64,000 bases of DNA from Candidatus Dojkabacteria bacterium UBA2022 (GCA_002335495.1 DDBW01000020.1:11124-75123), one strand, 5' to 3'. Shown: positions 1,473 through 53,615, counted from the stretch's first letter. Notes: generated by a model from the letters alone, not told the origin. Numbers and translations: made by a program.

Positions 1473-3116
1473 ATGTATATAACTCCTCGTCAGAGAAAGA
1501 AAAATATTACAACGACAATTATTCTCGCCGTCGCCATCCCTTTTACAGTTGTTGCTGCATACTTTGTTACTCAGTTAATGATCGGAGCTGCTGGAGAAAC
1601 TGACCCCAAGAATGTTGTTGTGAGTAACGTAACCTCTAACTCAATTACCATCTCATGGTCTACCGATGCCGACGCCACTGGATCTGCTATTGTTAAAAAG
1701 GGAGGAGTCGATAGCAAGCCATATCTGGATATAAGAGGAAGCGACAGAAGAAAAACTCACTATGTAGAAGTTACAGATCTTGAACCAAATGTTGAATACT
1801 CCTTTACCATTATTTCGAATACCACCAAATACACAGATGAAAAGGGTAGTGCATTCAAATTTAAAACTACCCCAATTACAGGAGAAACTCCTGTCCCACA
1901 ACCCGTTTTCGGCGGGATCACAGGCTCAACTTCAAATGATAATATTGCTTACGTCATGATTGATGGGAATTCCAATGTGTATCCTGCTTCTGGAGTTGTG
2001 AATTCTTCTGGCAATTGGATTATTGACCTCTCTGGTCTCCGGGACGGTACAAACTCACTTGTTAAGGTTGAAAAGGATACTAAGCTTCTTGTTGTCATAA
2101 GGGGGAAGGATAATACGGGTGCGAAAGTTGCGGGTACGTACAATGATCTTTTCGATGTTGATGGGAAACTTAAGGACTCTTCTAAGTTATCAATGGGGAC
2201 TTTATCAAATGTTTCCTCCCTATTTCCGGATAAGTCTGTAATTACGAGGGTTGTCGCGTATACTCCTCCAACTCCTACCCCGACTCCCACTCCAACGCCG
2301 ACACCTACCCCTACACCCACGCCAACTCCTACCCCTACACCAACCCCAGAAACTCGACAGTTTAGAATTGTTCAGGATGTGAAATGGGTTGTTATTTCTG
2401 GTACAAATGTAAATGGAGATGTTACAGAAGAACCTACTGTTGTAACGGGTAAAGAATCTATTCAAGTTACAAATTTAACCGATACGGGCTTTACTGTTAT
2501 CTGGTTAACTGCAGAAAAACAAGCCGGATCTATTGTTTATGGGACCACGGAGGATTCTCAGATTACAACTGCAAATGATGAAAGAGATGGTCTTCTTGAA
2601 AAGAAAACGTACTACGCCCACAGCGTAAAAGTTACAAAGTTACAGCCTGAAAAGAAATACTACTTTAAAGTTAAATCTGGAGAGCAAACGCTGGATAATG
2701 CTGGTAAGGCATTTGAAGTTACTACTCATAAGACGCTAAGTAATCCTCCTGAGTTTAAAACTATTTCGGGGAAGATTAATAATCTTGTTGGAGATGCCGT
2801 TGTATTTGCAAGAATAATCAATAAAGATACGAGCGGAAGCGTTGGTAATTCTTCGGTAACGTCTGCGGTGGTAGATGAAAACGGTAACTGGATTGCTACA
2901 TACGGAGATATGCGAAATGAGAGTGGTGCCGAGTACTTTAATCCTTCTGAATCAGACGTTATGGAAGTCAAACTTATGGCTTATCAAAATTCTTCTACGG
3001 TCTCTGAAAGCATGAAGAATATTGACTCCAAAACTATATCTATTGATCTTTCCAGCTCGTCTTCAGTTCGAGAGATTATTAAGGTTGCTAGATTAGGTAA
3101 CTACGGGGTTAAATAA
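1473..3116 (+). CDS. membrane-anchored surface protein with fibronectin-III-like repeats and a (Thr-Pro)13 linker
   Basis: 547 codons. It has an N-terminal TM anchor. Two segments have the FN3 pattern (SNVTSNSITISWST...YSFTI and TNLTDTGFTVIWLT...YYFKV). A long TPTPTP linker separates them. Confidence 0.6.
   Translation: MYITPRQRKKNITTTIILAVAIPFTVVAAYFVTQLMIGAAGETDPKNVVVSNVTSNSITISWSTDADATGSAIVKKGGVDSKPYLDIRGSDRRKTHYVEVTDLEPNVEYSFTIISNTTKYTDEKGSAFKFKTTPITGETPVPQPVFGGITGSTSNDNIAYVMIDGNSNVYPASGVVNSSGNWIIDLSGLRDGTNSLVKVEKDTKLLVVIRGKDNTGAKVAGTYNDLFDVDGKLKDSSKLSMGTLSNVSSLFPDKSVITRVVAYTPPTPTPTPTPTPTPTPTPTPTPTPTPTPETRQFRIVQDVKWVVISGTNVNGDVTEEPTVVTGKESIQVTNLTDTGFTVIWLTAEKQAGSIVYGTTEDSQITTANDERDGLLEKKTYYAHSVKVTKLQPEKKYYFKVKSGEQTLDNAGKAFEVTTHKTLSNPPEFKTISGKINNLVGDAVVFARIINKDTSGSVGNSSVTSAVVDENGNWIATYGDMRNESGAEYFNPSESDVMEVKLMAYQNSSTVSESMKNIDSKTISIDLSSSSSVREIIKVARLGNYGVK
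2262..2348 (+). repeat. low-complexity (Thr-Pro)n linker-coding repeat inside the FN3 surface protein gene
   Basis: 29 consecutive codons encode TPP(TP)13. The synonymous codons are deliberately mixed (act/acc/aca/acg with cct/cca/ccg/ccc). The antisense frame gives a spurious (GV)n ORF. Confidence 0.85.
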
Positions 3117-3154: not shown

Positions 3155-4612
3155 ATGGTAAAAGTAATGTCAAGGCACAATCCGTTATTATATCTTATCG
3201 TAATAGTCTCGTTTAGCGTTTTATCCGCTTTAGTTGTCGATGCCCTGAACTCCGATCGTAAAGTTATTCAACAGGTTAATGCTGCTGCCTCTATAAGCAC
3301 AGAATCAACTACCGAACTTACAAGAATCTCCGCTCCTGTACCAGTTGAAGTTGAAGAGAGAGAGGCTGATGTAACCGCCCTCCCAATTCAAGCCTATACT
3401 GAGGTTGATATTAAATACAATGAGGATGGGACCGCTAACGTTGAAGAGGTTTTGGGCTGTGGTGTAAATGGTAGTGAAACTGGATGTACATCTGGTCCAA
3501 GCATCTACTATCAACCAATCTGTTCGAGAAGTGATGTTAGCATAACGGTTGGTGACGGACAGGAAGTTGGTAGCACTGGTAATGGCGTTAAGGTAACTAA
3601 GAACTCTGTGATTGAAGTGTGGAAAGTTACTGTCCCTATGGCCCTCCTTTCGGGTAGTGAATATGTGAAAGATAGTAGGATGGCGATTCAGGATGCAGAT
3701 GAAGGATTTCAAGGTACCTTTAAGCCTGCCTATGATGTGATTACTGATTATGAAGCAAGGGCTTACTGTGTGCCTGGAGTTGACTGTGATGACTTTGATG
3801 AAGGTATTGCTTCTGGTCCAATGGGTCCGTACTGGGTGAATGTGCATGCCGAGCTTGAAGCTGAAGCGACAAATGCCCCAGCTCCCGATAAGGCTACAAT
3901 TACTCCTAGACTGAACTCGGCCTGTCCTGATGTTCAGAGATCGAAGCCAAATCCGATTAAGTCTAACCGAAAAGGTATGTTTGTAGAAGCTAATTATCAG
4001 TTGCCAGGTCAGCATGCTTTCGGTAGAAACTTTAGTTCATTAGTTTGTATGAAGTCTGCTGGAGTAGAGACTTCTAATCATGCGGCTTGTCTTGAAAAAA
4101 GAACGTCATTTAACTTCCTGGTTTACGCAATCGTTCAAATCGAAGATTGGATTGACTGTACTATTGGAAGATATAATGAAGAAACTAAGGAATGGCAAGC
4201 TCCTGATCCAGAACTTTGTAAAGAAAGCGTAATCACTAACTTGAAAATTGACGGTCTTTTCGGATCGACATTTAAGTGTGTTAGAAATCACTGTGCAAGT
4301 AGGTATATGGATCTTTCAAGACAAGGAACAAAGCCTCCGGGAGTTGCTCAAGCTATGGCCCCTGAAGGTTTAACCCCTCTTTATAATCAACCTGTTGTTG
4401 AACCTTTCTATGTGAGTACACCTTGTATGGTTAGAGTTGATGGTATACACTTTGTGGATATTCCTTGTATCTGGGATATGAGTGTTTATGAAGCTGATTA
4501 TCAGAGGCAAAAACAAAACGCAGTCCCAGGCTCAGAAGATATGCCTGCTACTTTCGAGGAGTATTGGAAGATGGTAGAAGAACAGATAAAGAATAGAGGT
4601 GAAAAGTGTTAA
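3155..4612 (+). CDS. Cys-rich secreted protein, unknown function
   Basis: 485 codons. It has an N-terminal signal/anchor (LLYLIVIVSFSVLSALVV). More than 25 Cys are spread through the mature part. There is no catalytic motif. Confidence 0.5.
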   Translation: MVKVMSRHNPLLYLIVIVSFSVLSALVVDALNSDRKVIQQVNAAASISTESTTELTRISAPVPVEVEEREADVTALPIQAYTEVDIKYNEDGTANVEEVLGCGVNGSETGCTSGPSIYYQPICSRSDVSITVGDGQEVGSTGNGVKVTKNSVIEVWKVTVPMALLSGSEYVKDSRMAIQDADEGFQGTFKPAYDVITDYEARAYCVPGVDCDDFDEGIASGPMGPYWVNVHAELEAEATNAPAPDKATITPRLNSACPDVQRSKPNPIKSNRKGMFVEANYQLPGQHAFGRNFSSLVCMKSAGVETSNHAACLEKRTSFNFLVYAIVQIEDWIDCTIGRYNEETKEWQAPDPELCKESVITNLKIDGLFGSTFKCVRNHCASRYMDLSRQGTKPPGVAQAMAPEGLTPLYNQPVVEPFYVSTPCMVRVDGIHFVDIPCIWDMSVYEADYQRQKQNAVPGSEDMPATFEEYWKMVEEQIKNRGEKC

Positions 4613-4644: not shown

Positions 4645-6144
4645 ATGTCAGTAGTATCAAGTTTGTATTCTCGTATTAGAAGGGTGAACTCTAAAGTTGT
4701 AGTTACTAAAACTTTAAATATCCTTACTCTCTTGCTTGTAATGTATATGTCCTTTAACACTCTTAATACGTATGCGATTAGTGCTGAAGAAATTATGAAT
4801 ACAAAAATCGATATTCAGGAGAGTTATAAAGACGCTGAAGCAGTAAACTCTGCTGCTGCAAAGGATACTGGTCCTAACTTACATAAAACTAGCTACTTAA
4901 ACACTCTTGCTGGAGCTTTTACAGGTGTATCAGTTTTTATGGGAGTAGAAGTGTTTACTAATTCAGAATCTGTTATGAATGATCCCGAGATCAGCCCTCT
5001 TTCAAAAAGAGGATTGCTTGGTTATTCTGATGATGCTGTTATGGCTTTATATCAAAATCAGCCAAATATAAATGTCCCTCAGCACATGGCGAGACAGTGG
5101 ATTCCTGGGTATGATCAAAGCGCTCGTTCAACTATTGCTGCTGAGGATGGATACGACTTACTCGTTTCCACTGGTGTCGATCAGATGTGGGAACAAATGA
5201 GAATGATTGCATACATACTTTTTGTAATCGTTTTGATGGCAGCTGGATTCATGATTATGTTTAGACAAAAAATTGGTGGGCAACTAATGGTTACGGTATT
5301 TAATACTTTGCCAGGAGTTGTAATTGGTCTTGTCACAGTGACATTTAGTTTCGCAATTGTCGGTTTCGTTTTGAATATAGGCATGTTGCTGGTTAATGTA
5401 ATTGCAGCTTTACTCGATCCATCGGGACAGAGTCTCCTCTCTATAAACGGCCCTTTCAGTCTTTTGAGTTTAAAAAATATCGGTGGATTTATAACGGAGT
5501 CTAGTCAGGCTAGATCCTTTACGATTGGAAGTTCTTCGTTGATTGCTGTCTTTATGGGCTCTATTGCTGCTATTTTTCAAGGGGCTGGATTGTTAGCTAC
5601 TGGCGCTGGTTTAGGCCCTGTTATTGCGGTTGGTATGATTGCATTTTTTATAATAATCCTTTTTATAGCTTTTGCGGTACTTTGGGCATCAGTAAAGGTA
5701 TTTATAACTGTTTTGACGGCTTATATAGGTATTATAATTGATACGGTCTTAGGGCCTCTTTATCTTGTAGCTTCTGCATTGCCTGGTAAGGGATATATAG
5801 GAGGTGATTGGTTTAAGAGAATATTAAGAAATACACTTGCTTTCCCAGTTGTCTTTTTCTTTGTTAACTTGGGTGGATATATCCTCAAACAAGAAATTGA
5901 TTTTTCGTTCCCATCTGGTTTAGTTGGAGCTGAAGGTAGCGGTGTAGATGCTGCTCTTACGGATGGAGTAGGTTGGTTCTTAAAGGCCTCACTTACTTTG
6001 ATCCTTTTCTTTGTTGCAGCAGAATCACCTAAGTTCCTTACTGATATTCTACCTACTAATGGTGGAAAAGGAGCTGAAGCTGTTATCGGAGGAACAAAAG
6101 CTTCTCTTAGTAAAATCCCTCTCATCGGTGGCTTCTTTGGTTAA
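4645..6144 (+). CDS. polytopic integral membrane protein, possibly VirB6/TrbL-like
   Basis: 499 codons. It has an N-terminal signal, a ~130-aa soluble segment, then 6-8 Gly-rich TM helices and a hydrophilic tail. This architecture is typical of TrbL/VirB6-family channel proteins. No sequence motif confirms that. Confidence 0.45.
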   Translation: MSVVSSLYSRIRRVNSKVVVTKTLNILTLLLVMYMSFNTLNTYAISAEEIMNTKIDIQESYKDAEAVNSAAAKDTGPNLHKTSYLNTLAGAFTGVSVFMGVEVFTNSESVMNDPEISPLSKRGLLGYSDDAVMALYQNQPNINVPQHMARQWIPGYDQSARSTIAAEDGYDLLVSTGVDQMWEQMRMIAYILFVIVLMAAGFMIMFRQKIGGQLMVTVFNTLPGVVIGLVTVTFSFAIVGFVLNIGMLLVNVIAALLDPSGQSLLSINGPFSLLSLKNIGGFITESSQARSFTIGSSSLIAVFMGSIAAIFQGAGLLATGAGLGPVIAVGMIAFFIIILFIAFAVLWASVKVFITVLTAYIGIIIDTVLGPLYLVASALPGKGYIGGDWFKRILRNTLAFPVVFFFVNLGGYILKQEIDFSFPSGLVGAEGSGVDAALTDGVGWFLKASLTLILFFVAAESPKFLTDILPTNGGKGAEAVIGGTKASLSKIPLIGGFFG

Positions 6145-6168
6145 ATCTAATAGTGTGAAAATTATAAA

Positions 6169-9100
6169 ATGGCTGGAAAGAGGAAAGATAAATATGAAAA
6201 CGCTTTGCAGTCTATTTCTGACTTCATATTCAAAAATTCTGGTAAACGGGTAAAAGTTAAGCCCGGAAAAATTTCAGGGGCGTCTGGTACAGATCAGATG
6301 GCAAAAGCTCTTGCTGAAATTGCCTCCAAACCTGGGCTATACATAAGTGATTCATTGATGAAGTCAATTAATGAGACGATTGGTAGTCAGGCTTTGCTTC
6401 AATTTTATGTTGATCAACTGAACGAAGAAAAACATATAGGTGCTGATAAAAATGAAGGGCGTTTTAGAGTCCGAGGTTTTGAAACCGCTAATGTTATTGC
6501 TAACCCTAGGAAATACGTAAAGAGTATTTTCGACAAAGCTAAGGCAGAAAGAGAATGGGCAAGTAAAGTTGGAATGGCAGGCTACATTGACGGCGCAGCT
6601 GCCCTTTTATGGGCTAAAAAACAGGGCTTAAGTTGGCAGGAAGGAATGAAGATGTTTTCTGCTGCCAACTACGACTTACAGCCTATCCATAGGGAGGATG
6701 CTCATAAACTTATGGCTGAAACAGCTGGCTATCAAAGTTTCAAAGACCGTAAGAAAGCAGAGGAGGCTGGTAAGGACCTTTATTCAGCAATTAATAGCTC
6801 TGCTTTAACACGTGGGGGTAAAGTTAGTACTGCTAGTGGTGCTTTAGGCAATGACTTCATGCAGACTCTTTCTCCTTCGGAAAGAAAACTTCTAAAAGAT
6901 GGTATGGATGCTCTAAGTGCTGGGCAAAAACTCCCAGATGTTACGAGTAGATCTAAATTTGATGATTTACTTAAGCGACAGGCCCAGTTTGGAAAGCCTG
7001 GGGATAAATACTCAGGTCGTTATAATGCGATCCAAGGGCAACTAAAAAAACTTGAAGTCTCACCTGGTGTAAGGAAGTACACAGATTCTGAGGTAGACGC
7101 TATTTTAAAAAATTATGTTGAATCTCGGGATATCTCAAAGCTTGATCTTACGGGTGCTGAGTTCAAAAACTTAGATAAATATGCTGGTCTTAATCCTACA
7201 ACGTATAGAAGGCTCCTGATGAAAAATATTGATGCAAAGTTAAGGGTTATGGATCCTGTGAAAGACAAGGATGAAATGAAAGCTCTTACTACTTCAATGG
7301 GTGTTATAAGTTTGTGGCAAAGGGCATATGGAGGACCTGTCCCAGAGGATTATGCTGTTTTGATGGATAAAGTTAAATCAGAGATGGGTAATCCCTCTAC
7401 CTCTTCTGGACGAAAAGCTGAGCTTCAAAAAATACTCGACCAAATTAATAAAGAGAATAACGCCATTGGTGATAGAACAAATCGTCTTGGGGCATATACG
7501 GGTGTCTCAGATATACCTAAAATCGGAGCTCTTCGTAAAGATCTTGCCAATTATATAGGAATTGAGAAAGAGTTTTGGGAAGGTAAATTTAGAGAACTCT
7601 CGGATCTCCGTGCAAAAGGAACTATCACTCCAGATCAGGAACGTGAACTGGCTAAAGTAGGGCGAAGGCTTTCTTTGCTTTCTGTTGAACAAGATGGACT
7701 TAGAACACTACCCTGGGCGGGAGCGCGTATTACAGTAGGGCAGGTGTCAAATATGTTCAGAGCGTATAAGAATATATTTCAAGGTGGACCAGGTAGCATG
7801 CTTATGAACGGAATGTTCTGGGTTAGTGATGCGGCAGGTCCTTTTGCACCAGGAGCTATGGGTAAAATTAAGCTTATGTCACGTAAATTTGAAAATGGTC
7901 TTATTACTGAGGCCGTTATGCCTACTATGCGAGGAGATATTCACCCCTCATATGCGCAACTTACTGCTCTTTACTATCTCTCTCCCGCTAGTTTGCTTAA
8001 AACTTTTTTCTTTACAGGAGAAGGTTGGGCATATATGGGACATATTAAAGAAAGTGGAGCCAAAAATCTCCTAAATCATTATAAAAAAGATATTATCGGA
8101 GTTTTGGGAATTACGGAAGATGCTTTTAACGAATCGATGTCGAAGAATTACCTAAATATTGTAGATCAGCTTAAGGGAAGTACTAATCCTCTTATAAAGA
8201 AATTTATTGGTAGGGTCGAGTCCCTCTCTAATGCCGCTGAGAAACTTGCATCGAGGGTGGATTTTTATAATCGTTACCTTTACGGGCCTTATAGTAAGAT
8301 GGCATCAAATATAAACCAATGGATAATGTCGCGAGTAGGTCGTTTGTTGAAAGGTAGGATTCAAAGCGAGATGTGGAATAGTGCTGTTGATAAGTTTGTT
8401 GCCGGTGCAATCGGTCTTAAACAACTAATCTATTATGGAGTAGAAGCGGTTTTGCAGGCTGCTAATATCACCGTTAGTGGAGGAGCTTTGAGTATGTTGG
8501 TCGGATTTGTTTCTTACGTAGTTACTGAAGGCATTTATAAATTCGCACAGCCTATTCTTGAAGTTTTAGCAGGAATTTTCTCTATGTTTGGTATTTTACT
8601 CTTTGCCTTGATACTGTTTTTGGTAGGAGCCGCGAATGGAGCCTTCTCCAGGAAGTCAGATCCATATCGTGCATACTACCCTGGCTCTGCTATTGCCTGT
8701 ACTACCTACAACCCCCATGCAGGCATGTACCCACCTCCTCCTGATGACGTTCCTAGTACAGGATACCCACCATCTGATTCAAGCTGTCCATTTACCTTCA
8801 CTCCAGCTATCTGTACACAAGGAGATGGAGGAAACAGCTCTAGCTACCACCAACAAACAAAGGCAATTGACATTGGAACTAACTCTGTTCCCGTTAATGA
8901 AGATGTCTGGCACGCCCCAGCAGATGGAAAGATTACCAAATTCCAGGCTACCAACATATGTCAGGGAACTGGAAAGAACTATGGAGGATGGTTAGTCTTC
9001 CAAGATAACAGTGGAAATGTATATACACTATTACACGTAAAAGCCCTTGCCCCAGTTGGAGCTGTAAAGAAAGGAACTGCAGTCGCTATTACCCAAAGAG

Positions 9101-9231
9101 ACCTCACTCCAGACGGATGGTGTTGGACTGGACCTCACTTCCACCTCCATGTAACATCAAATGGAAGTTATGTTGATTCTGAAGACTGGTATAGAAATAA
9201 ATTGAAGTGCAGCTTCTCTGTATGTCCATAA
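6169..9231 (+). CDS. 1020-aa multidomain protein with a long helical N-region, a hydrophobic segment and a C-terminal M23 (LytM-type) metallopeptidase domain
   Basis: The C-terminal ~130 aa carry M23 hallmarks (HQQTKAIDIG ... GGWLVFQDNSGNVYTLLHV ... GPHFHLHV, i.e. the HxxxD and HxH motifs). Two or three TM helices lie around nt 8400-8640. There is no signal peptide. Confidence 0.65.
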   Translation: MAGKRKDKYENALQSISDFIFKNSGKRVKVKPGKISGASGTDQMAKALAEIASKPGLYISDSLMKSINETIGSQALLQFYVDQLNEEKHIGADKNEGRFRVRGFETANVIANPRKYVKSIFDKAKAEREWASKVGMAGYIDGAAALLWAKKQGLSWQEGMKMFSAANYDLQPIHREDAHKLMAETAGYQSFKDRKKAEEAGKDLYSAINSSALTRGGKVSTASGALGNDFMQTLSPSERKLLKDGMDALSAGQKLPDVTSRSKFDDLLKRQAQFGKPGDKYSGRYNAIQGQLKKLEVSPGVRKYTDSEVDAILKNYVESRDISKLDLTGAEFKNLDKYAGLNPTTYRRLLMKNIDAKLRVMDPVKDKDEMKALTTSMGVISLWQRAYGGPVPEDYAVLMDKVKSEMGNPSTSSGRKAELQKILDQINKENNAIGDRTNRLGAYTGVSDIPKIGALRKDLANYIGIEKEFWEGKFRELSDLRAKGTITPDQERELAKVGRRLSLLSVEQDGLRTLPWAGARITVGQVSNMFRAYKNIFQGGPGSMLMNGMFWVSDAAGPFAPGAMGKIKLMSRKFENGLITEAVMPTMRGDIHPSYAQLTALYYLSPASLLKTFFFTGEGWAYMGHIKESGAKNLLNHYKKDIIGVLGITEDAFNESMSKNYLNIVDQLKGSTNPLIKKFIGRVESLSNAAEKLASRVDFYNRYLYGPYSKMASNINQWIMSRVGRLLKGRIQSEMWNSAVDKFVAGAIGLKQLIYYGVEAVLQAANITVSGGALSMLVGFVSYVVTEGIYKFAQPILEVLAGIFSMFGILLFALILFLVGAANGAFSRKSDPYRAYYPGSAIACTTYNPHAGMYPPPPDDVPSTGYPPSDSSCPFTFTPAICTQGDGGNSSSYHQQTKAIDIGTNSVPVNEDVWHAPADGKITKFQATNICQGTGKNYGGWLVFQDNSGNVYTLLHVKALAPVGAVKKGTAVAITQRDLTPDGWCWTGPHFHLHVTSNGSYVDSEDWYRNKLKCSFSVCP

Positions 9232-10289
9232 CAATTGTTGACAACATAAAAAGCATTATAAAAGAGAGACCCATTGTTGCCGTTATGGCTATTGCGGTAG
9301 TGGTTCTACTCCTCGTTCTCATTTACAATCTTTTCTTTCAAAGAGAGGAAGAAGAAAAGCCTCAAAACGGAAAATACCTAATTGAAACCCCTATGCAGTA
9401 TGAGGGGAGTCATAGCGTTGTTATTCCAAAGCAAGTATATGAAGAGAAAACTTTTCCAGATCAGTTACCCATATTCCAGCTGGTAGATACGAACCATTCG
9501 TCAGATATTGATAGATTTCTAATTAAAATTGGGAAAACAGGTCTAACAAAGGATGTCGTAGGAGACTCTCTGTACTCTTGGATTGGAAGCGATAGTAAGT
9601 TGGAATACATCAAATTCCAGCAAAGTCTTTCATTTACCTTTAGCAACCCATTTACAATTTCTTTGCCTACTCAGTTCGTTGATGCTGATAGCGCTGAGAA
9701 ATTTTTCTCACAGTTTATTAAAGAGTACTTTGGTCTCGAATATGAATATACAAATGCCAAAATCTCAACTGAAGGACAAAGGATTGTTTTACAGGTTAAT
9801 AGAAAAGTTAATGATTACCCCATCTACCTTCAAAATCATTTCACCTATACCGATACTTTGACCGTAGACGCTGATGGAAATGTATACTCCGGATCTCTTA
9901 CCTTGTTCGATTATAATTCTGCTGAGAAAGAAGATATTAAACTTGTGAAGGTCCCAAACCTTTCTCAATTAATGTCTAATCCATCATATCCAAAAGATCT
10001 ATTTAAAGGATTTAGTGAAGATCTTCGAAAAATATTGAGCGAACCGGGGGTTGAACTTTTAGACGGAGCTGACCAGTTAATTGAACTTCCTGAACCTGTG
10101 TTTTCAGACGTGAAAAGCATTGAGCTTGTGTATTATTACTCAAGTGATGCATATAAACAACTTATTCCTATATACAGATTAGAAGCTGAAGGAGTTATTA
10201 CCTATTTAGGCAAGAATGCTAGGATTCCAATAGTAATTTACGCTAATGCCCTTGATCCAGATAGAGTTTATATAGAAAGTGGAGAGTAA
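9207..10289 (+). CDS. membrane-anchored hypothetical protein
   Basis: 360 codons. It has an N-terminal TM helix (IVAVMAIAVVVLLLVLIYNLFF) followed by a soluble domain. It overlaps the upstream stop by 25 nt, so the true start may be an internal Met. Confidence 0.45.
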   Translation: MQLLCMSITIVDNIKSIIKERPIVAVMAIAVVVLLLVLIYNLFFQREEEEKPQNGKYLIETPMQYEGSHSVVIPKQVYEEKTFPDQLPIFQLVDTNHSSDIDRFLIKIGKTGLTKDVVGDSLYSWIGSDSKLEYIKFQQSLSFTFSNPFTISLPTQFVDADSAEKFFSQFIKEYFGLEYEYTNAKISTEGQRIVLQVNRKVNDYPIYLQNHFTYTDTLTVDADGNVYSGSLTLFDYNSAEKEDIKLVKVPNLSQLMSNPSYPKDLFKGFSEDLRKILSEPGVELLDGADQLIELPEPVFSDVKSIELVYYYSSDAYKQLIPIYRLEAEGVITYLGKNARIPIVIYANALDPDRVYIESGE

Positions 10290-11223
10290 TATGGTTAAAA
10301 GTATTCTAAATCTTTTTAGAGTAAAGCAGTGGGTAAAAAATCTTATGATCTACATCCCACTGTTCTTTTCCGGTAATCTTCTTGATTCTGCATCTTTTTA
10401 TAAAACGACATATGCATTTATAGCATTATGTTTTCTTTCGTCTGCCGTCTATATATTTAATGATATCCTAGATAGAAAACGAGATTCTCTCCATCCAAAA
10501 AAGAAAACCAGACTTATAAGCTCAGGGAAAATCTCCGTATTCTCTGCCGTTATCTTGCTTCTATCAATTCTCTCTTTTGCATTTGTAATCTCATCTTTGT
10601 ACGTTCAGTCCGAGTACTTTAATGCTTTTATGATCCTTTATGCTTCAATGATGCTATTTTATACGCTATTTTTTAAACACATAGGGATCGTAGATGCAAT
10701 CGTTATTGCCCTAGGATTCGTTCTTCGAGTAGTTGCTGGAGCCGTGCTTTTGGAACTCTCCCTTTCCGCGATGCTAGTTGTTGCTATGATTGGCGCTGCT
10801 ATATTAATATCCTTCGGTAAAAGAAAGGCTGAAATATCTTCAATGGGGTGGGAGTTGGCGATCAAACACAGACCTGCACTTATTGTTTATCCAAAAGGTG
10901 TGCTGGATATAATTATATCGACTGTCACATCCGTAACCTTTTTCGCATATATCATGTATTGCTATGGGTATAAAACCGAAGGCCTAATTACATTGCTCGA
11001 ACCATATCTTCCTCCTCGTTTTCAGGACCCCCAGTGGTTACTACTTACAATTCCTGTGGCTTTCTACGTTCTCACCCGTTATTTAATCCTTATATATAAA
11101 GGAGAAAGCATTATCCCAGAGGATATATGGGTAAAAGATTCTTCTCTTAGATATGGACTAGTTCTATGGATATTATTAATGTTTCTCTTGATATATTTCG
11201 AACAGTTATCTAGAATGTTCTAG
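10279..11223 (+). CDS. UbiA-family polyprenyl-phosphate phosphoribosyltransferase-like membrane enzyme (DPPR-synthase-like)
   Basis: 314 codons with multiple TM helices. It has the UbiA NDxxDxxxD motif (NDILDRKRD). The N-terminus VKQWVKNLMIYIPLFFSG resembles the decaprenyl-phosphate phosphoribosyltransferase family. Confidence 0.6.
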   Translation: MESNMVKSILNLFRVKQWVKNLMIYIPLFFSGNLLDSASFYKTTYAFIALCFLSSAVYIFNDILDRKRDSLHPKKKTRLISSGKISVFSAVILLLSILSFAFVISSLYVQSEYFNAFMILYASMMLFYTLFFKHIGIVDAIVIALGFVLRVVAGAVLLELSLSAMLVVAMIGAAILISFGKRKAEISSMGWELAIKHRPALIVYPKGVLDIIISTVTSVTFFAYIMYCYGYKTEGLITLLEPYLPPRFQDPQWLLLTIPVAFYVLTRYLILIYKGESIIPEDIWVKDSSLRYGLVLWILLMFLLIYFEQLSRMF

Positions 11224-12417
11224 ATGAAAAAACTGTCTCATTTTGTTTTCAAAATTTGTCTAACTGTTTTCTTTGTATTGGCACTGCCAACTTCCATGTA
11301 TGCTGCTGAGTATAGTAGGGAACAATCAGGGATAGACACTTCGATTTCGGATCAAACAACAAGGCAATTTGCGCAACCGACCAAGATATATATGATTCAA
11401 ATTACAACTCAAGAGTCCCTGCTACAAAAAGATTCTAGGGCGTGGTTTAAAACCCTTTACTACTACTTTATCACCCGCCTTGGATACGTAGATCTCCCAT
11501 TTACCTACGTTGTTGACCGAGATGGAAATGTATATAAGGGTAGGGATGGAGGTCCTAACGTGTCTCCTGAAATCTCAGGTTCCCAAGGAGCTGTTGTCGT
11601 AGGATATCTCTCAAACCCAACCGATATCACAGTTCCAGCCGGTGATGCAATTAAAAAACTCGTAACGGATCTCTCATATACATATGGAATAGAAGGGAAA
11701 GAATTACAGACCGTGACAATGAAGATGATTAAAGAAGATGGGAAGTCTACTAAATCCGTTTTCACTCCTGTAAATAATCTTTTTGCGCTAAATATCGCTA
11801 CAGTTATTGAAAATGTGAAGTTCTCGGACAAAGAGCATATTGATTATAAAGCAGAAATAGCCCTTGTAAACTATGAAAAAACCGTTAAATCAGGGGAGAA
11901 GTTAAAGGTAACTGTGGGTATAAAGAATAATAATGATTTTCCATGGTTTACAGATAAAGATTATATATATGTTTCTACTAAGGGATCTAAGAATAGCAAG
12001 TTTGCAATAAACGGTGTTTGGGATAGCTTCAGCAAGCCTGTAAGCATATCGAAGCGCACTGTTCAGCCAGGAGAGACCGTTAATGTCGAGTTTGAACTCC
12101 AAGCACTACTACTCCCTGGAAAACAGAGTGAGTCATACTATATCTTAAGATCCCCATCTACGGTATTTTCAAATACTGAATTCAAGATTGAGTTTGAGAT
12201 TCTCAAGGGTAGTGCGAAATTGGTTCAGGTGACCAACACTCCAGGGGGAGTTCTAAACGTTCGAGAATGTCCATCTGGTAACTGTAAATCCCTTACCCAG
12301 TTGGAAGAAGGGCAAGTTGTTGTTATGATAGAGAAGAGCTCGGCAGGTTGGTATAAGGTTAGGTATTCAGAAAGTAAAACTGGTTGGGTATATGGTCCGT
12401 ATATAAAAGAATTGTAA
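11224..12417 (+). CDS. secreted N-acetylmuramoyl-L-alanine amidase (amidase_2/PGRP-like) with a C-terminal SH3b domain
   Basis: It has a signal peptide. The LGYVDLPFTYVVDRDGNVYKGRDGG block matches the amidase_2 core. The C-terminus (GWYKVRYSESKTGWVYGPYIKEL) is SH3b-like. Confidence 0.6.
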   Translation: MKKLSHFVFKICLTVFFVLALPTSMYAAEYSREQSGIDTSISDQTTRQFAQPTKIYMIQITTQESLLQKDSRAWFKTLYYYFITRLGYVDLPFTYVVDRDGNVYKGRDGGPNVSPEISGSQGAVVVGYLSNPTDITVPAGDAIKKLVTDLSYTYGIEGKELQTVTMKMIKEDGKSTKSVFTPVNNLFALNIATVIENVKFSDKEHIDYKAEIALVNYEKTVKSGEKLKVTVGIKNNNDFPWFTDKDYIYVSTKGSKNSKFAINGVWDSFSKPVSISKRTVQPGETVNVEFELQALLLPGKQSESYYILRSPSTVFSNTEFKIEFEILKGSAKLVQVTNTPGGVLNVRECPSGNCKSLTQLEEGQVVVMIEKSSAGWYKVRYSESKTGWVYGPYIKEL

Positions 12418-14438: not shown

Positions 14439-15365
14439 CTATCTTGAAAGGTATTTAGCGTTACATGCTGGCCAGTGCCATGCCCTATTTCCTGGGGTAT
14501 CATACATCTTTGATACTATCTCAATCTGTTCTGTCCCATCCCAGATGTTCGTCCCCCCGTATGCAGTATAAGTCTTCTTATTAAACTGGTATAGACCTAG
14601 GTATACATTGCGGGTATTTTGACCGGAATCACACCAGGTCTCGCATCTCATTATGAATTTCATCCAGTCGTTTTTCTGTTTGAAAAGAGTTGGGTCTACG
14701 TATCTATCTATTACCGCATCCCAGTATCCACAACTTTGTATTGTTACTGGCTTTGTTCCAATAAGCACAATCTTATCGATTGCTTTCTTGGTTACCTCTG
14801 ACTTTACAACACTGGACTTAAAAGCTACTCCATCACGGTAAATTACTTTGATAGTTTTTACGAGTAGTCCGTTAGATCCTTCTTGATCTATTTTAACAGT
14901 TCCCGTGTTTAGCTCCTCGGTTTTCTTCTCTACCAGAGTGAAAGGGATAATCTCCTCTCTGTTTTTATACTCCACATCAACTTTGATTACTTGGATTACT
15001 CTTTTTTCTGTTATTACTTCTTCTATATCAGGGATGGTCAAGTCATCTTCATCTAGGGATATTTTCATCTCTGAAAGCACCTCTCCAACCGTTCTGCCAT
15101 ATACTAACGCCTTAAAAGTTCCTGCTTTAGAAGTTACTGCTACCACCTTAGGCGCAAATATCGACCTGTTTTTTTTAGGAAGTGTTGAAGTGTCGATACT
15201 TAAAGCCGATGACTTATCATTTCTTGTTTCTCCTGCATAAGCATATGAAGCGCCAAATTCAAGTCCAGTTACAATCAGGACTGCAACAGTTAATACCAAA
15301 AGCGTAAATGTGAAGAGGTAGGTTTTGAGTCGAGCACTTCCGTTTACACGGATTGACCGGTCCAT
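14439..15365 (-). CDS. rpf: RpfB-like resuscitation-promoting-factor/lytic transglycosylase with G5 domain and N-terminal TM anchor
   Basis: The C-terminus CETWCDSGQN...YLGLYQFNKKTYTAYGG is the Rpf transglycosylase-like signature. A G5-like beta domain lies upstream and a TM helix follows the MDRSIRV start. The ORF track extends to 15449, but the Met at 15365 is chosen because it directly precedes the anchor. Confidence 0.65.
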   Translation of the reverse strand: MDRSIRVNGSARLKTYLFTFTLLVLTVAVLIVTGLEFGASYAYAGETRNDKSSALSIDTSTLPKKNRSIFAPKVVAVTSKAGTFKALVYGRTVGEVLSEMKISLDEDDLTIPDIEEVITEKRVIQVIKVDVEYKNREEIIPFTLVEKKTEELNTGTVKIDQEGSNGLLVKTIKVIYRDGVAFKSSVVKSEVTKKAIDKIVLIGTKPVTIQSCGYWDAVIDRYVDPTLFKQKNDWMKFIMRCETWCDSGQNTRNVYLGLYQFNKKTYTAYGGTNIWDGTEQIEIVSKMYDTPGNRAWHWPACNAKYLSR

Positions 15366-15469
15366 TTGTTTACTTAAAAATGTTATTCCTGTGGGATTAG
15401 TTGAGATGTGGTATCCACAAGACAAAAAATTGTAACAGATATTTGACAATAATGCACACCTAAACTAAC

Positions 15470-37106: not shown

Positions 37107-37420
37107 GCACAAGTATCCTATGCAGTTGCTGTGGCAATATTTGTTTTGCCATAGAGGAAAGTCCGGACTTCGTGTCGGTCTCGAATATTATCGAGATAGA
37201 TGCCAACGCGAGTTGGGAGGGAGTGATCTCTCGGATAAAAGGGCCACAGAGAATATACCGCCCGCAAGGGTAAGGGTGAAAAGGTAGTGTAAGAGACTAC
37301 CGGGATAAACAGTAATGTTTATTTGCTTTGTAACCCCCTTCTGAAGCAAGGTGATATATAACACCGCATAGATAGATAACTGCATAAAACAGAATCCGGC
37401 TTATGGGGTGCTTGTGCCTT
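37107..37420 (+). ncRNA. rnpB: RNase P RNA (bacterial type)
   Basis: The universally conserved P4 strands GAGGAAAGUCCGG (37154-37166) and ACAGAAUCCGGCUUA (37389-37403) are present. So is the AGGGUGAAAAGGUAGUGUAAGAGACUACC (P10-P12) block. The P1 pairing is gcacaag/cttgtgc. Protein ORFs called across it are spurious. Confidence 0.85.
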
Positions 37421-47422: not shown

Positions 47423-47551
47423 ATGGTGTATGAGTCAGCTATTATTGCGCTAGGCTTTGATGAGTTTTTATTAGATGTACTTCCAGAGCTAGCTCACATG
47501 GGGGGAACTGGTGAAACTTCACAATGCTGTGCATCAGGTACTAAGGACTGA
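47423..47551 (+). CDS. candidate RiPP precursor peptide (42 aa: leader ending in Gly-Gly, then a Thr/Ser/Cys-rich 14-aa core)
   Basis: It was translated manually as MVYESAIIALGFDEFLLDVLPELAHMGG-TGETSQCCASGTKD. It is missing from the ORF track. Its stop TGA overlaps the downstream start as TGATG. Confidence 0.55.
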   Translation: MVYESAIIALGFDEFLLDVLPELAHMGGTGETSQCCASGTKD

Positions 47552-48900
47552 TGTTACTGAGATCGTCTATTAATTATGAGAGACATCTTAAGGATAAGCT
47601 TTTAGAGCTTTCTGCTTATGTAAATGTAGATAGCTCTTGTAAAATAGATCCTTCTTTTTTAAGAGAATATTATTATAAATTCTATGCTCAAACACTAGTT
47701 TATAATTTTTATGTTGAGAAACAGGATAACTTCGTTGAGTATGTCGATTCGCTTTCAAAAGAGTATCTTCATAGTTTTAAGGTCCCAACCTCTTTTGTAT
47801 CAGCCGTTTTGAGCCAAGTTTTCGATGATGCCAAAAAATTAAATTTGCAGAATGAAGTTGTGCCTTTGGGTGATGTTCATTATAAAGGAGGTACAAAGTA
47901 TCTGAATAATAAGAAAATATCTTTTCATAATTATCCTAACTATGACACTCTTGTGAGAACGATTGCAGATATCGTAAATGTAATCCCTGTATCCTGTCTT
48001 CCCCTGCAGAACAATGAATCCGGCGCTTTAAGTAGGGAATTTATAGACGTAAACAATGTTACAGATGACGAAAAGAAAGTCGAAGAATATTTTTATAACT
48101 TAGGAGTTGTTATACCATTTCTGCTGTTACTTAGAGCCATTGATGTATACGCCGAAAATATTCTTGTAAATTTACCCTATCCGGTATTATTTGATCTTGA
48201 ATGTATCTTTACAGGAGTTCATGAAAAGGATCCTAATTATTCTTTATTCCATACTGGTATTATAAAGGTACCGGAAAACAACGATGTTAGCGCTCTGACT
48301 GGTGGTATGGAGCAGATCTATAGCTATTTGCATCCATCATTGCATAATGAAAATGGATTACCAAAAATAAAGTGGAAGATCAAATCTGATCTTAAAGCTG
48401 ACAATCTTGTTCTGTTACGAGGAAACTATGTAGACGTTACAAAATATATAGATATTTTACTAAAAGGTTTTGATTGTTCTTCTAATCAAATTTCTAAGAG
48501 GATGGCTGATGTCCGAAAAGCTGTTTTAGAGATTCCCACATATATTCGCTATATTCATCGTCCTACATATATTTATAGCTCTCGTATTCAACACTACCTA
48601 TTCCCGAATGTATATGAGACCCAAGACTCTATTAAATTTATGCGTGAAGGTTTGCAGTCTCATTCACCTATGTTTGCAGTTACCGAAAGCGAAGGTATTC
48701 TTAATTACGAGTCAGAAAGTATGTCCAAGGGCATGGTCCCCGTATTTTATAATGAGATCCACTCTAATGATGTTTTTAATTCGAATGGAGATCTAATTAC
48801 GAAGAATAAAGTTAAACCTGTAGATGTATGGCTCTCTCATATTACTAATATTGAGGAATTTTTTTATAAACAAAGGAAAATCCTCCGCGATTCTATCTAG
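47551..48900 (+). CDS. 449-aa protein with a kinase-like (APH/protein-kinase-like) catalytic core, a candidate peptide-modifying enzyme
   Basis: The catalytic-loop-like IDVYAENILVN (D-x4-N followed by NILV) is present. The metal-binding-like FDLECIF (DxE) is present. The Gly-rich GDVHYKGGTKY is present. It is translationally coupled to the peptide ORF. Confidence 0.5.
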   Translation: MLLRSSINYERHLKDKLLELSAYVNVDSSCKIDPSFLREYYYKFYAQTLVYNFYVEKQDNFVEYVDSLSKEYLHSFKVPTSFVSAVLSQVFDDAKKLNLQNEVVPLGDVHYKGGTKYLNNKKISFHNYPNYDTLVRTIADIVNVIPVSCLPLQNNESGALSREFIDVNNVTDDEKKVEEYFYNLGVVIPFLLLLRAIDVYAENILVNLPYPVLFDLECIFTGVHEKDPNYSLFHTGIIKVPENNDVSALTGGMEQIYSYLHPSLHNENGLPKIKWKIKSDLKADNLVLLRGNYVDVTKYIDILLKGFDCSSNQISKRMADVRKAVLEIPTYIRYIHRPTYIYSSRIQHYLFPNVYETQDSIKFMREGLQSHSPMFAVTESEGILNYESESMSKGMVPVFYNEIHSNDVFNSNGDLITKNKVKPVDVWLSHITNIEEFFYKQRKILRDSI

Positions 48901-50087: not shown

Positions 50088-51440
50088 TTGCGTAACTGGT
50101 TTATACCGAACAAAAGGAACAGCTTTAAGCCTTACCTGCTTAGAAATACAGCTCTGTCTGTTTATACATTCATCCTTTTTACCGTAAATATTTTAGGAGG
50201 TTTTCTAGGAATCCCTGAAGTTTCAGCAAGTTCAATTGCTAAGGACAATATCATTCGACTAACCAATGCAGAAAGACAGAAATTTGGATTAAATGCACTA
50301 AAAGAGAACTCTAGACTGAGTTCCGCAGCTTTAGCCAAGGCAAATAATATGATTGAAGAACAGTATTGGGATCACTTTGGTCCCAATGGAGAGACTCCCT
50401 GGCAGTTTATAAAAGCATCAGGATATCAGTACATTTATGCAGGTGAGAACCTTGCGAAAGGCTTTAAAAGTTCCGAAGGGGTTGTACAGGCATGGATGGC
50501 AAGCCCAACTCACAGAGAAAATATTTTGAGCGGTAATTATAAAGAGATTGGTATTGCAACTGTTACCGGTGAACTTCTTGGAGAGAATATTATTTTGGTA
50601 GTTCAGATGTTTGGAAACACTACTTCCGAGGTGACACCTTCTGCTCCTCCAACCACGCCGGTTGTTCCAGAACCTAGTGAAAACGGAGATATAAAGAGTA
50701 TTAAAATTACATATCCTGCTGAGGGTTCCGTCGTTACCGACCCTTCTGCCGATATTAAAGGTGAAGTTTTCAACGTTGAAGGGGAATATAAAGTCGAGGT
50801 TTACGATAAAAATAAAGTGGTAGGTAATCTCTCCACCAACGGATCTTTATGGGATTTTAGAAAAGATGCAGATTGGAGTGAAGGGTCACATAACATCACA
50901 GCAACTCTTGTGGATAGTGAAAATAAAGTTGAGGATAGTGTTACCTTTGAGGTTGATAGCACACCTCCACAGATTGATGAGTTCGATATTGCAGTTGAGG
51001 CCAAAGAACCAGGATGGGTAGTTACGATTAATGTAGAAGAGGATTCTCCTGATGTTACAGTCGTTGTTGGATCCAAAACCTATCCATCATCCTTTGTAGA
51101 CAACCTATATAAAGTTGAAATTGAAGAATTGAATTCAGGAGCTAAGGTGGTGATTGTTGCGAGTGATAAACATGGTAATACTTTGGAATATGAAATTACT
51201 GATCTATTTGAAGTTGATGATGGGCAGGTTTTAGGCGGATTTCTCAATAATATAGACATAAAGGATACTGTTAATACAGTTTTTGTTATCTTCATATTTA
51301 TCCTTCTACTTATTGAAATCGTTGTGTATGCTAGAAAGGGTCTCATAAAGGAAAAAAGATCTAGTTTGTTTTCAATTTCAATGTGGTGGCTTTTGATGCT
51401 AATAGGTACTTTAAATGGATTTGAAGGAGTTATCATATAG
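50088..51440 (+). CDS. secreted CAP/SCP (PR-1-like, YkwD-type) domain protein with Ig-like repeats and a C-terminal TM anchor
   Basis: The CAP domain (LTNAERQKFGLNAL ... HFGPNGE ... GENLAKGF ... WMASPTHRENIL) is present. Beta-rich repeats and a terminal hydrophobic helix follow. Confidence 0.65.
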   Translation: MRNWFIPNKRNSFKPYLLRNTALSVYTFILFTVNILGGFLGIPEVSASSIAKDNIIRLTNAERQKFGLNALKENSRLSSAALAKANNMIEEQYWDHFGPNGETPWQFIKASGYQYIYAGENLAKGFKSSEGVVQAWMASPTHRENILSGNYKEIGIATVTGELLGENIILVVQMFGNTTSEVTPSAPPTTPVVPEPSENGDIKSIKITYPAEGSVVTDPSADIKGEVFNVEGEYKVEVYDKNKVVGNLSTNGSLWDFRKDADWSEGSHNITATLVDSENKVEDSVTFEVDSTPPQIDEFDIAVEAKEPGWVVTINVEEDSPDVTVVVGSKTYPSSFVDNLYKVEIEELNSGAKVVIVASDKHGNTLEYEITDLFEVDDGQVLGGFLNNIDIKDTVNTVFVIFIFILLLIEIVVYARKGLIKEKRSSLFSISMWWLLMLIGTLNGFEGVII

Positions 51441-53540: not shown

Positions 53541-53615
53541 GCCGCTATCGTCTATCGGCTAGGACACATGATTCTCAATCATGTAAGCAGGGTTCGATTC
53601 CCTGTAGCGGCACCA
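53541..53615 (+). tRNA. tRNA-Glu (anticodon CUC) with encoded CCA
   Basis: It was folded by hand. The acceptor is GCCGCUA/UAGCGGC. The D-stem is GUCU/GGAC. The anticodon stem is CAUGA/UCAUG with loop UUCUCAA. The variable loop is 4 nt. The T-arm is CAGGG-UUCGAUU-CCCUG. The discriminator is A, followed by CCA. Confidence 0.85.

Follow-up and report, generated by a model that had tools for sequence, protein, structure and literature searches.

The window analyzed here is a stretch of 64,000 nucleotides from Candidatus Dojkabacteria bacterium UBA2022 (GCA_002335495.1, DDBW01000020.1:11124-75123), and this study concerns two of its adjacent genes, open reading frames (ORFs) 5 and 6, together with the gene cassette in which they lie. 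Candidatus Dojkabacteria, formerly WS6, is a class of ultra-small bacteria within the Patescibacteria, or candidate phyla radiation (CPR). ORF5 (also O5) spans positions 4645-6144 and encodes 499 amino acids (aa); ORF6 spans positions 6169-9231 and encodes 1020 aa. Both are on the plus strand. A model that had read the DNA alone placed the two genes at these coordinates and proposed that they encode a VirB6/TrbL-like membrane protein and a protein ending in an M23 peptidase (the original prediction). The same gene calls, made by independent callers, are found on two public contigs carrying identical DNA.

ORF5 and ORF6 lie within a co-directional, tightly packed run, O1-O2-O3-O4-ORF5-ORF6-O7, which is followed by UbiA, O9, and UvrD. 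Genes for IF-2, S15, PNPase, RsmB, and RsmE are located upstream of the window. Downstream of the cassette, UvrD is followed by candidates for EF-G, EF-Tu, and a ribosomal-protein cluster, judged by size and position, and by RNase P RNA (class A, 163 bits; 37110-37418). A single tRNA-Glu(CTC) is found at 53541-53615, and QueA, Tgt, RNase Y, and an ABC exporter are among the ten ORFs scanned at 36-64 kb. The remainder of the window is ordinary chromosomal housekeeping DNA, as confirmed by the RNase P RNA and the tRNA. The scan covered the cassette ORFs, the ten ORFs at 36-64 kb, and the 8.5 kb upstream of the window, but not the ribosomal-protein-like cluster at 15-36 kb, and it detected no genes for VirB4/VirD4, a relaxase, or phage structural proteins; for the scanned ORFs, this agrees with the statement in the original prediction that the window contains none of these genes. 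The upstream region, to which the prediction had pointed as a possible source of ATPases, a relaxase, or phage structural genes, holds housekeeping genes and none of the three over those 8.5 kb. The cassette resembles the remaining window in GC content, with no compositional shift, and neither an integrase nor repeats were detected at the locus. A scan for promoters and terminators was uninformative, because the number of sites was not above chance.

The cassette is conserved across the class. One genome per GTDB species was scanned using the ORF5 motif GFMIMFRQK as the search pattern, which retrieved 461 genomic stretches encoding an ORF5 relative. The best 80 of these 461, nearly all from Dojkabacteria, were analyzed for synteny by ORF calling, BLASTP, and hidden Markov model (HMM) searches; loci are given here as L-numbers. 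Among these 80, the order O2-O3-O4-ORF5-ORF6-O7-O9-UvrD is present in essentially every locus with a sufficiently long contig. The cassette resides between rsmE/rsmB and uvrD, and its order is kept at ORF5 identities of just 30-60%. A few lineages (L025, L040, and L083, with L080 seen in part) carry O4-ORF5-ORF6-O7 at a different housekeeping site. O1 is variably present. The UbiA gene (10279-11223) was considered as a cassette member and rejected, being found in just 4 loci. The cassette, O2-O3-O4-ORF5-ORF6-O7 with O9 usually next, is thus a chromosomally fixed, vertically inherited envelope module of the Dojkabacteria. Because order and site are kept across the class, it is neither decayed nor mobile and has been under long-term selection. 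Of the possibilities raised in the original prediction, a decayed or partial module does not agree with a gene order retained in approximately 80 species-level genomes at one housekeeping site, and a lineage-specific envelope machine is supported by it. Some cassette-bearing contigs are publicly labeled Lysobacteraceae, Prolixibacteraceae, Gammaproteobacteria, Clostridia, or Saccharibacteria (P0064, L022, L024, L033; many are "uncultured Candidatus Saccharibacteria"). These labels are probably binning or naming errors.

ORF5 and the N-terminal domain of ORF6 form a conserved two-gene unit, since they are duplicated jointly. A second ORF5-ORF6 pair is found in a genome that also has the canonical cassette (L017 canonical and L006 second, in the same assembly), and likewise in L089 and L090. 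It consists of an ORF5 paralogue of approximately 604 aa (603-605 aa), followed by an ORF6 paralogue of 603-727 aa, which has the homologous N-domain and stops right after the membrane helix, without a peptidase. The pairs are located at 10001-13998 in L006, 8304-12301 in L089, and 10001-13644 in L090, and a Cys-rich protein of approximately 240 aa precedes them. The second pair in L090 adjoins dnaA-dnaN-rpmH-rnpA-yidC, a region reported as a virB4 neighborhood in several CPR classes. A different arrangement is observed in L072 (7883-11380), where tandem ORF5 paralogues (644 and 520 aa) lie upstream of a 1132-aa ORF6 orthologue.

ORF6 has the layout described in the original prediction: a long helical N-terminal part, hydrophobic helices at approximately aa 741-824, and a C-terminal M23-type domain. 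The N-domain (aa 1-740; 6169-8388) is helical, lacks a signal peptide, and would be a cytoplasmic orphan domain; comparison with Pfam and PDB, using profiles of 6 and 37 sequences, gives coiled-coil noise only. The predicted membrane anchor (aa 741-824; 8389-8640) comprises two or three hydrophobic helices, with peaks at aa 767-785 and 799-817 and an amphipathic stretch at aa 741-765, and is kept in alignment A2. It is followed by a juxtamembrane Pro/Cys-rich linker (aa 825-880; 8641-8808) and by a Cys-rich M23 (LytM-type) metallopeptidase domain (aa 881-1010; 8809-9198) with residues H894, D901, H956, H990, and H992.

The copy of the M23 domain in the window scores 19.1-22 bits (E value 1.9e-4), below the Pfam PF01551 cutoff of 28.7, and the orthologues and their profile match M23. 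PF01551 is matched by 38 of 67 orthologous C-termini (E < 0.01; best 3.8e-10). A profile built from 46 M23-type sequences (alignment A5) matches solved M23 enzymes, namely 8s3m (2.7e-7), 9gy1 (2.9e-7), 5kqb (1.2e-6), ShyA (1.9e-5), LytM (9e-4), and LasA (0.05), and the HLHLE segment is aligned in these comparisons. D901, H956, H990, and H992 are invariant in the 46 M23-type orthologues, and H894 is near-invariant. The first motif is H894-x6-D901, as opposed to the canonical HxxxD spacing, and the HxH motif is H990-F-H992. The M23 domain of the original prediction is therefore real at the family level. The HxxxD motif on which the prediction relied is literally present (H915-APA-D919), but H915 is not conserved. 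These profile comparisons identify the ORF6 C-terminus as a genuine, divergent M23 peptidase, confirmed at the family level only. Two ORF6 orthologues end before or inside the peptidase (L011, 11498-14131, equal to P0093, 877 aa; L067, 11493-13892); these could be natural truncations or assembly frameshifts.

The peptidase of ORF6 is exchangeable. The 67 orthologues end in an M23 domain (46), an unrelated HExxH domain (17), a CHAP domain (2; PF05257, 9e-10), or a truncation (2). The HExxH domain is Cys-rich, occupies the last approximately 150 aa of the ORF6 orthologue, and has an invariant H-E-x-x-H...E-W-G-A pattern, with the fuller signature H-E-L-x-H-Q-x-Q ... R-E-W-G-A-D-Y-L-S-x-N-G-G-G-Y. 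It is found in L063, L032, L038, L023, L059, L081, L008, L085, L051, L034, L052, L074, L050, L021, L017, L037, and L040. The domain has no match in Pfam, NCBIfam, or PDB, and probably represents a new family of peptidoglycan metallopeptidases; peptidoglycan is the predicted substrate because the domain substitutes for M23 and CHAP peptidases. A resemblance to the HELGH C-terminus of a 1121-aa protein in L005 was dropped, as the two are not homologous by HMM. The ORF6 of L045 ends at the contig edge, and its stretch ETGIPCEIIMGIH may represent a fourth, lytic-transglycosylase-like module.

The gene after ORF6, O7 (9222-10289, plus strand; 355 aa), overlaps the ORF6 stop by 10 nt and changes together with the peptidase. 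Locus pairs were binned by ORF5 identity, and identities of O7 and of the ORF6 N-domain were compared between pairs of the same and of different peptidase type. For O7, same-type and different-type identities are 0.20 and 0.16 in the ORF5 bin 0.25-0.35, 0.28 and 0.17 at 0.35-0.45, 0.38 and 0.17 at 0.45-0.60, and 0.59 and 0.17 above 0.60. The corresponding values for the ORF6 N-domain are 0.19 and 0.20, 0.25 and 0.26, 0.37 and 0.36, and 0.50 and 0.43, and are thus similar for the two kinds of pair at matched ORF5 identity. The breakpoint can be located by comparing L041 (M23 type) with L059 (HExxH type), whose ORF5 proteins are 86% identical. The first approximately 720 aa of their ORF6 proteins are 67-95% identical in all 40-residue windows except one. 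Identity drops to 12-22% approximately 35 aa past the last transmembrane (TM) helix, after a common NY.YGN.IP..V..C motif, in the stretch equivalent to the juxtamembrane linker. Throughout O7 it remains low (12-27%), and it rises again in O9 and UvrD. On a neighbor-joining tree of ORF5 and the ORF6 N-domain (64 taxa), the peptidase type has changed at least 11 times. Homology between the O7 proteins of M23-type and HExxH-type loci extends along the whole protein (HMM E values of 1e-15 to 1e-25), and CHAP-type loci carry a shorter, different protein in place of O7. The ORF6 peptidase and O7 are an exchangeable cassette that is swapped jointly. O7 therefore belongs to the unit, a point absent from the original prediction, and the joint swapping marks the peptidase and O7 as a probable interacting enzyme-regulator or enzyme-immunity pair. 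Such a pair is possibly a determinant of host specificity.

The fold of O7, which is anchored in the membrane and extracytoplasmic, is of the YycI/YycH/YpeB-like (tandem PepSY-type) kind. The AlphaFold2 model of O7 has a predicted local distance difference test (pLDDT) score of 80 and a predicted template modeling score of 0.70. Foldseek matches the model to YycI (2o3o, 1.8e-8), to YycH in the WalK complex (9a5d_B, 1e-6), and to the YpeB C-terminal domain (5boi, 1.9e-5), with a probability of 1.00 and template modeling scores of 0.3-0.47, and also to the fungalysin propeptide (1.2e-3). YycI, YycH, YpeB, and the fungalysin propeptide all have folds of the PepSY type that are connected with the regulation of wall hydrolases or peptidases. 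At the sequence level, O7 has no match in Pfam, the YycI, YycH, and YpeB families included. Because of its co-swapping and its extracytoplasmic anchor, O7 is likely a specific binding partner of the ORF6 peptidase, acting as an inhibitor, chaperone, or immunity protein.

ORF5 is a polytopic membrane protein and a candidate for a divergent VirB6/TrbL fold. The layout given in the original prediction agrees with the protein, which has a signal-anchor at aa 18-36, an acidic segment at aa 37-187 (approximately 150 aa), between six and eight hydrophobic helices, and a tail of 40 aa. The motif G-F-M-I-M-F-R-Q-K (aa 201-209; 5245-5271, plus strand) closes the first core TM helix and forms invariant or near-invariant columns in two alignments of the family (A1 and A8). 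A second segment, G-P...W (aa 370-389; 5752-5811, plus strand), aligns with the invariant G180-P181...W199 of MPF_T VirB6 proteins (alignment A9), a match that is not significant on its own; P371 is invariant and W389 near-invariant in A1. The TrbL/VirB6 profile PF04610, proposed as a check, does not match the ORF5 of the window and matches one of 40 close homologues at an E value of 0.73. The "VirB6 layout" of the original prediction is thus a description of topology rather than the result of a profile search. Among 49 remote members of the family, two match PF04610 (best 4.8e-5), and a few others weakly match TrbC or T4SS_pilin. The family is large: an exhaustive profile search finds 3957 clusters at E <= 1e-3 and 2550 at E <= 1e-30 (clusters at 50% identity).

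Structural comparison points to VirB6. When the AlphaFold2 model of ORF5, whose membrane core has pLDDT values of 80-90, was compared with all PDB chains using Foldseek, the top three matches were TrwI/VirB6 of the R388 type IV secretion system (T4SS) (8rt9_F, 8rtd_L, and 7o3v_G), with E values of 9.7e-3 to 0.13, probabilities of 0.99-1.00, approximately 317 aligned columns, and template modeling scores of 0.28/0.44. The best, 8rt9_F, has an E value of 9.7e-3, a probability of 1.00, and a template modeling score of 0.44. Beyond the TrwI chains, the sole match with a probability above 0.4 is DotA-IcmX of the Dot/Icm T4SS. ORF5 is probably a very divergent VirB6-type protein, short of demonstrated membership in the strict family, and its homology to VirB6 would hold at the level of fold only. 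Upstream housekeeping genes and the lack of direct TrbL profile homology, which the original prediction had named as arguments against a VirB6 assignment, are both observed; the fold and the gene neighborhood still favor VirB6. Among candidates for a divergent VirB6 in Dojkabacteria and their relatives, this family ranks first.

Support that is independent of the fold comes from the gene neighborhoods of distant relatives. Eight contexts outside the canonical cassette were sampled for T4SS neighbors. Arrays of six or seven T4SS_pilin genes lie directly upstream of the ORF5-family gene in L005, L091, and L100; these arrays of divergent VirB2-like pilin genes (L005, 2263-5151; L091, 3511-5905; L100, 607-2831) belong to other CPR lineages. 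L099 has pilin-domain genes near its ORF5-family gene, L005 also has PrgI/VirB3, and L100 encodes a 725-aa ATPase with DUF87, TrwB_AAD_bind, and TraG-D_C domains 7.5 kb from its ORF5-family gene. These neighborhoods support a link between ORF5 and T4SSs. One pilin ORF in L005 overlaps its neighbor in a different frame.

The remaining cassette proteins are all encoded on the plus strand. O1 (2-1093) is the C-terminal part of a giant Fn3 surface protein (1165-1179 aa) whose start lies upstream of the window; it is present in 34 loci, is seen at full length in L001 and L002, where it has Pur_ac_phosph_N/Fn3 matches, and is a paralogue of O3 (the O3 HMM matches it). O2 (1113-1424; 103 aa), with a TM helix at aa 10-28 and a helical tail, is the first universally conserved gene of the cassette, holds a constant position in 62 loci, and has weak DUF948-like matches only. 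O3 (1473-3116; 547 aa) is an anchored surface protein with a TM helix at aa 14-32 and two Fn3-type domains (fn3, 2.6e-13; Pur_ac_phosph_N, 2.8e-15; Pfam) joined by a Pro-Thr repeat linker, and its position is kept in 70 loci. The linker corresponds to a perfect (PT)n repeat of approximately 14 units at 2265-2350, and the complementary strand here reads as a spurious ORF of Gly-Val repeats (1949-2320). O4 (3155-4612; 485 aa) is an anchored extracytoplasmic protein with 15 Cys residues and a TM helix at aa 10-28; it has no match in Pfam, PHROGs, or NCBIfam and lies directly upstream of ORF5 in 68-76 loci. O9 (11224-12417; 397 aa) is membrane-anchored, with SH3_3 at its C-terminus (1.1e-12) and a match to the phage amidase family phrog_1794 (1.1e-10). 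It follows O7 in 59 loci and is possibly a further wall-binding or wall-cleaving part of the module, with its membership judged from position only. O2, O3, O4, O7, and O9 have one N-terminal hydrophobic helix each, so these proteins are probably anchored with their bulk outside the cell.

Several other genes of the window were noted. A membrane-anchored 336-aa protein is encoded at 14439-15449 on the minus strand, and its positional counterpart in L004 carries a G5 domain. Its C-terminus (RCETWCDSGQNTRNVYLGLYQFN) resembles an Rpf-type transglycosylase by eye only; if this likeness holds, it would be another wall enzyme beside the cassette. A CAP (cysteine-rich secretory protein) domain (1.1e-19) is present in the 450-aa protein encoded at 50088-51440. 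A DUF4135 protein, similar to the N-domain of LanM-type lanthipeptide synthetases (47551-48900), and an ABC exporter with a fused membrane domain (53641-55401) lie a few kilobases apart, which may indicate that this reduced genome encodes the modification and export of peptides.

The explanation to which we give an even chance is that the cassette is an envelope module related to T4SSs, in which the peptidoglycan peptidase is replaceable and is accompanied by a cognate regulator or immunity protein; any ATPase would be encoded elsewhere. ORF5 would most likely be a membrane platform or channel subunit with a highly diverged VirB6/TrbL fold, from a large, CPR-wide family that in other lineages is encoded beside VirB2-type pilins, PrgI/VirB3, and T4SS ATPases. 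ORF6 would be its obligate partner, with the orphan domain of approximately 740 aa in the cytoplasm, the anchor in the membrane, and the peptidase displayed outside the cell. There, the peptidase could cleave murein cross-links locally, allowing the apparatus to span a wall, either the cell's own or that of an attached cell. O7, which travels with a given peptidase type, would most likely bind the peptidase and then restrain, chaperone, or neutralize it. O1-O4, as anchored Fn3/Cys-rich surface proteins, are probably adhesion or scaffold parts, and VirB4 energy and pilins would be supplied from another locus. The VirB6/TrwI fold matches, the neighborhoods of relatives, and the real M23 domain thus favor the "channel plus wall hydrolase" of a type IV secretion-like system in the original prediction.

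Several observations weigh against this explanation. ORF5 has no match in Pfam (E < 0.1), PHROGs, NCBIfam, or a PDB sequence-profile search, also when a 40-member profile is used. Its Foldseek matches have E values of approximately 1e-2 and template modeling scores below 0.5, and the pLDDT of the whole model is just 71. An hhalign comparison of the ORF5 family with R388 TrwI alone is not significant. Against seven MPF_T VirB6 proteins (A9), hhalign gives an E value of 0.0028 and a probability of 11% for A1 and an E value of 0.0078 and a probability of 5% for A8, neither significant alone. Both runs place ORF5 G370-P371...W389 onto VirB6 G180-P181...W199 with equal spacing, a suggestive motif alignment with a non-significant score. 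VirB4, VirB3/PrgI, TrsD, and VirB2-like pilins are absent within 10 kb of the cassette in every Dojkabacteria locus examined; an HMM built from the seven L005 pilins likewise finds no VirB2-like pilin in the window or in the Dojkabacteria loci. A VirB4 was not located in the scanned parts of the window or the 8.5 kb upstream. O7 was considered as a VirB8/TcpC-like (NTF2-fold) component, and this assignment was rejected, with the VirB8-like OrfG ranking 33rd at a probability of 0.11. Lastly, a universal cassette among housekeeping genes would also fit a function in cell-wall growth. Chief among the uncertainties is whether a T4SS ATPase acts together with the module, or whether the latter is an independent device for wall remodeling or antagonism.

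Patescibacteria have widespread chromosomal, relaxase-less T4SSs of an MPF_FATA-like type, related to Gram-positive conjugation systems (PMC12102498). VirB4 is present in 2417 of 3035 Patescibacteria genomes, and 2,474 VirB4 homologues compare with 480 VirB6 homologues; VirB6 is scarce or absent in some classes, for which the authors propose extreme divergence (PMC12102498). Some VirB1 homologues carry Peptidase_M23, peptidase and lysozyme homologues adjoin virB4, and both Dojkabacteria assemblies in the part of Table S1 consulted are VirB4-positive (PMC12102498). Southlakia epibionticum cannot grow as an epibiont without its T4SS (SEML1_0006-0019), pilins included (Wang et al. 2023, PMC10633639). 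The cassette shares with these systems its phylum, its chromosomal location, the lack of a relaxase, a polytopic protein of putative VirB6 type, and wall-degrading enzymes, and distant ORF5 relatives adjoin the VirB2-like pilin arrays that are typical of Patescibacteria T4SSs. It differs in that no VirB4, TrsD, PrgI, or pilin is linked to it and in that ORF5 evades VirB6/PrgH profiles. The orphan N-domain of ORF6, the Fn3/Cys-rich partners (O2-O4), the PepSY-like O7, and the swappable peptidase are undescribed in PMC12102498 and PMC10633639.

Among individual VirB6 proteins, R388 TrwI (7o3v, 8rt9, and 8rtd) is the best match of the ORF5 model; both are polytopic and helical with an extracytoplasmic segment, and the G-P...W segment can be aligned with that of VirB6 proteins, below significance. 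ORF5 is longer than TrwI (499 versus 342 aa), has its own GFMIMFRQK motif, and shows no significant sequence similarity to it. The organism that encodes ORF5 has a single membrane (monoderm-like), and no VirB5 partner of ORF5 has been identified.

Gram-positive conjugation systems also pair a channel protein with a wall hydrolase, as in PrgH/PrgK of pCF10, TcpH/TcpG of pCW3, and ConG/CwlT of ICEBs1. The arrangement resembles that of ORF5 and ORF6, in which a VirB6-like polytopic protein lies beside a membrane-anchored, modular peptidoglycan hydrolase. The hydrolase domains of the Gram-positive systems vary from system to system and include SLT, CHAP, NlpC/P60, and LytM. Unlike ORF6, these hydrolases are short and N-terminally anchored, and they are encoded on mobile elements and linked to VirB4, a type IV coupling protein, and a relaxase. 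No hydrolase of this kind is known to carry a cytoplasmic domain of 740 aa or to be swapped jointly with a PepSY-like partner. PMC12102498 cites PrgK and TraG.

The exchange of peptidases can also be read as that of a polymorphic effector-immunity system, in which ORF6 would be a toxin, delivered or presented at the surface, attacking the wall of a neighbor or host, O7 the immunity protein guarding the wall of the producer, and ORF5 an export or presentation partner. This possibility, which we regard as doubtful, overlaps the T4SS-related module and differs from it in primary purpose, which would be killing or breaching of the host wall rather than assembly of a secretion machine. Polymorphic toxins include the amidase effector-immunity pairs of type VI secretion systems, the T4SS effectors of Xanthomonas with their immunity lipoproteins, and contact-dependent inhibition (CDI)/Rhs proteins with C-terminal swapping. 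ORF6 resembles them in its conserved N-terminal carrier, its exchangeable M23, HExxH, or CHAP end, the co-changing adjacent gene, and sharp breakpoints between close relatives. The clean cassette replacement between genomes with 86% identical ORF5, the at least 11 switches, and the shorter, different protein that replaces O7 in CHAP-type loci argue for the same reading, and O7 is anchored on the outer face of the membrane, the side on which a wall peptidase would have to be neutralized. However, the O7 proteins of the M23 and HExxH types are still homologous, their fold being constant across both, whereas homology is unusual among immunity proteins for unrelated toxin domains. ORF6 appears to be integral to the membrane, shows no obvious site for release, and is encoded at a fixed housekeeping locus. 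Each cassette has exactly one copy, and no orphan modules or arrays of C-termini and immunity genes were seen.

Alternatively, ORF5, ORF6, O7, and O9 might control the cell's own murein cleavage during growth and division, with no tie to a T4SS, in analogy to FtsEX-EnvC/PcsB, WalK-YycH/YycI, and YpeB-SleB. We consider this unlikely. The universal, fixed locus between IF-2, S15, PNPase, and RsmB/RsmE on one side and UvrD, EF-G, and ribosomal genes on the other would be expected of such a housekeeping system, as would SH3/amidase-like and G5-domain proteins as neighbors and the lack of an ATPase or pilin in cis. O7 is similar to the Bacillus proteins YycH and YycI, regulators of WalK, and YpeB, the partner of SleB, in its anchor, its tandem alpha/beta domains, and its link to a wall hydrolase, and all three are connected with wall-hydrolase control. 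It differs from them in that neither a WalK-type kinase nor SleB lies nearby, and its partner would instead be the M23/HExxH peptidase of the preceding gene. An essential autolysin would not usually have its catalytic domain replaced by unrelated folds among close relatives, a divisome-type complex is not expected to include Fn3 and Cys-rich surface proteins, and the ORF5 fold and the neighborhoods of its relatives favor a T4SS.

The two other origins considered are effectively refuted. A conjugative element that has decayed and lost its ATPases and relaxase would leave a channel-like protein and a wall hydrolase without VirB4/VirD4/relaxase in cis, as is seen here. It is nevertheless very improbable in view of conservation, synteny, and composition: across the class, all genes are intact and tightly packed and keep their order while their proteins are 30-60% identical, a sign of purifying selection over a long time, and they lie at a position fixed between housekeeping genes, without an integrase, repeats, or a compositional shift. 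The phage origin also raised by the original prediction, in which ORF6 would be a tape-measure protein with a lytic domain from a prophage remnant or tailocin-like element, is barely credible: ORF6 is a long helical protein that contains hydrophobic segments and ends in an M23 domain, tape-measure proteins likewise have modular lytic domains, and the M23 region alone has a weak PHROG metallo-endopeptidase match (1.3e-3), but no tape-measure, tail, capsid, portal, or terminase family is found among the cassette proteins (PHROGs) or the Pfam matches of neighbors, and the chromosomal site is constant in approximately 80 species-level genomes, with a composition like that of the window.

The physical interaction of Patescibacteria with their hosts is a central open question. 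In the only lineage tested, the unusual chromosomal T4SS of these bacteria is required for epibiotic growth; for most classes, little is established about its channel subunit and the enzymes that breach the wall. The analysis adds a large unannotated protein family, with approximately 4000 clusters at 50% identity, to which ORF5 belongs; a defined seven-gene envelope cassette that is universal in one class and is a usable target for omics and imaging; and an uncharacterized HExxH domain that replaces M23 and CHAP. The most interesting and most directly testable result is the exchange of the peptidase and its neighbor as a unit at least 11 times, a clear evolutionary signal. Taken furthest, and as a proposal that we rate as rather unlikely, the cassette could be a chromosomally fixed, VirB6-based contact machine with which an epibiont opens the host cell wall, using an exchangeable peptidase "warhead" and a matched self-protection protein. 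Given the 3957 clusters of the ORF5 family, this proposal may extend to part of the wider CPR. If it is true, warhead-immunity swapping would tune the machine to host wall chemistries or host countermeasures, and the ORF5 family would be the "missing" VirB6 of those CPR classes in which no VirB6 has been detected.

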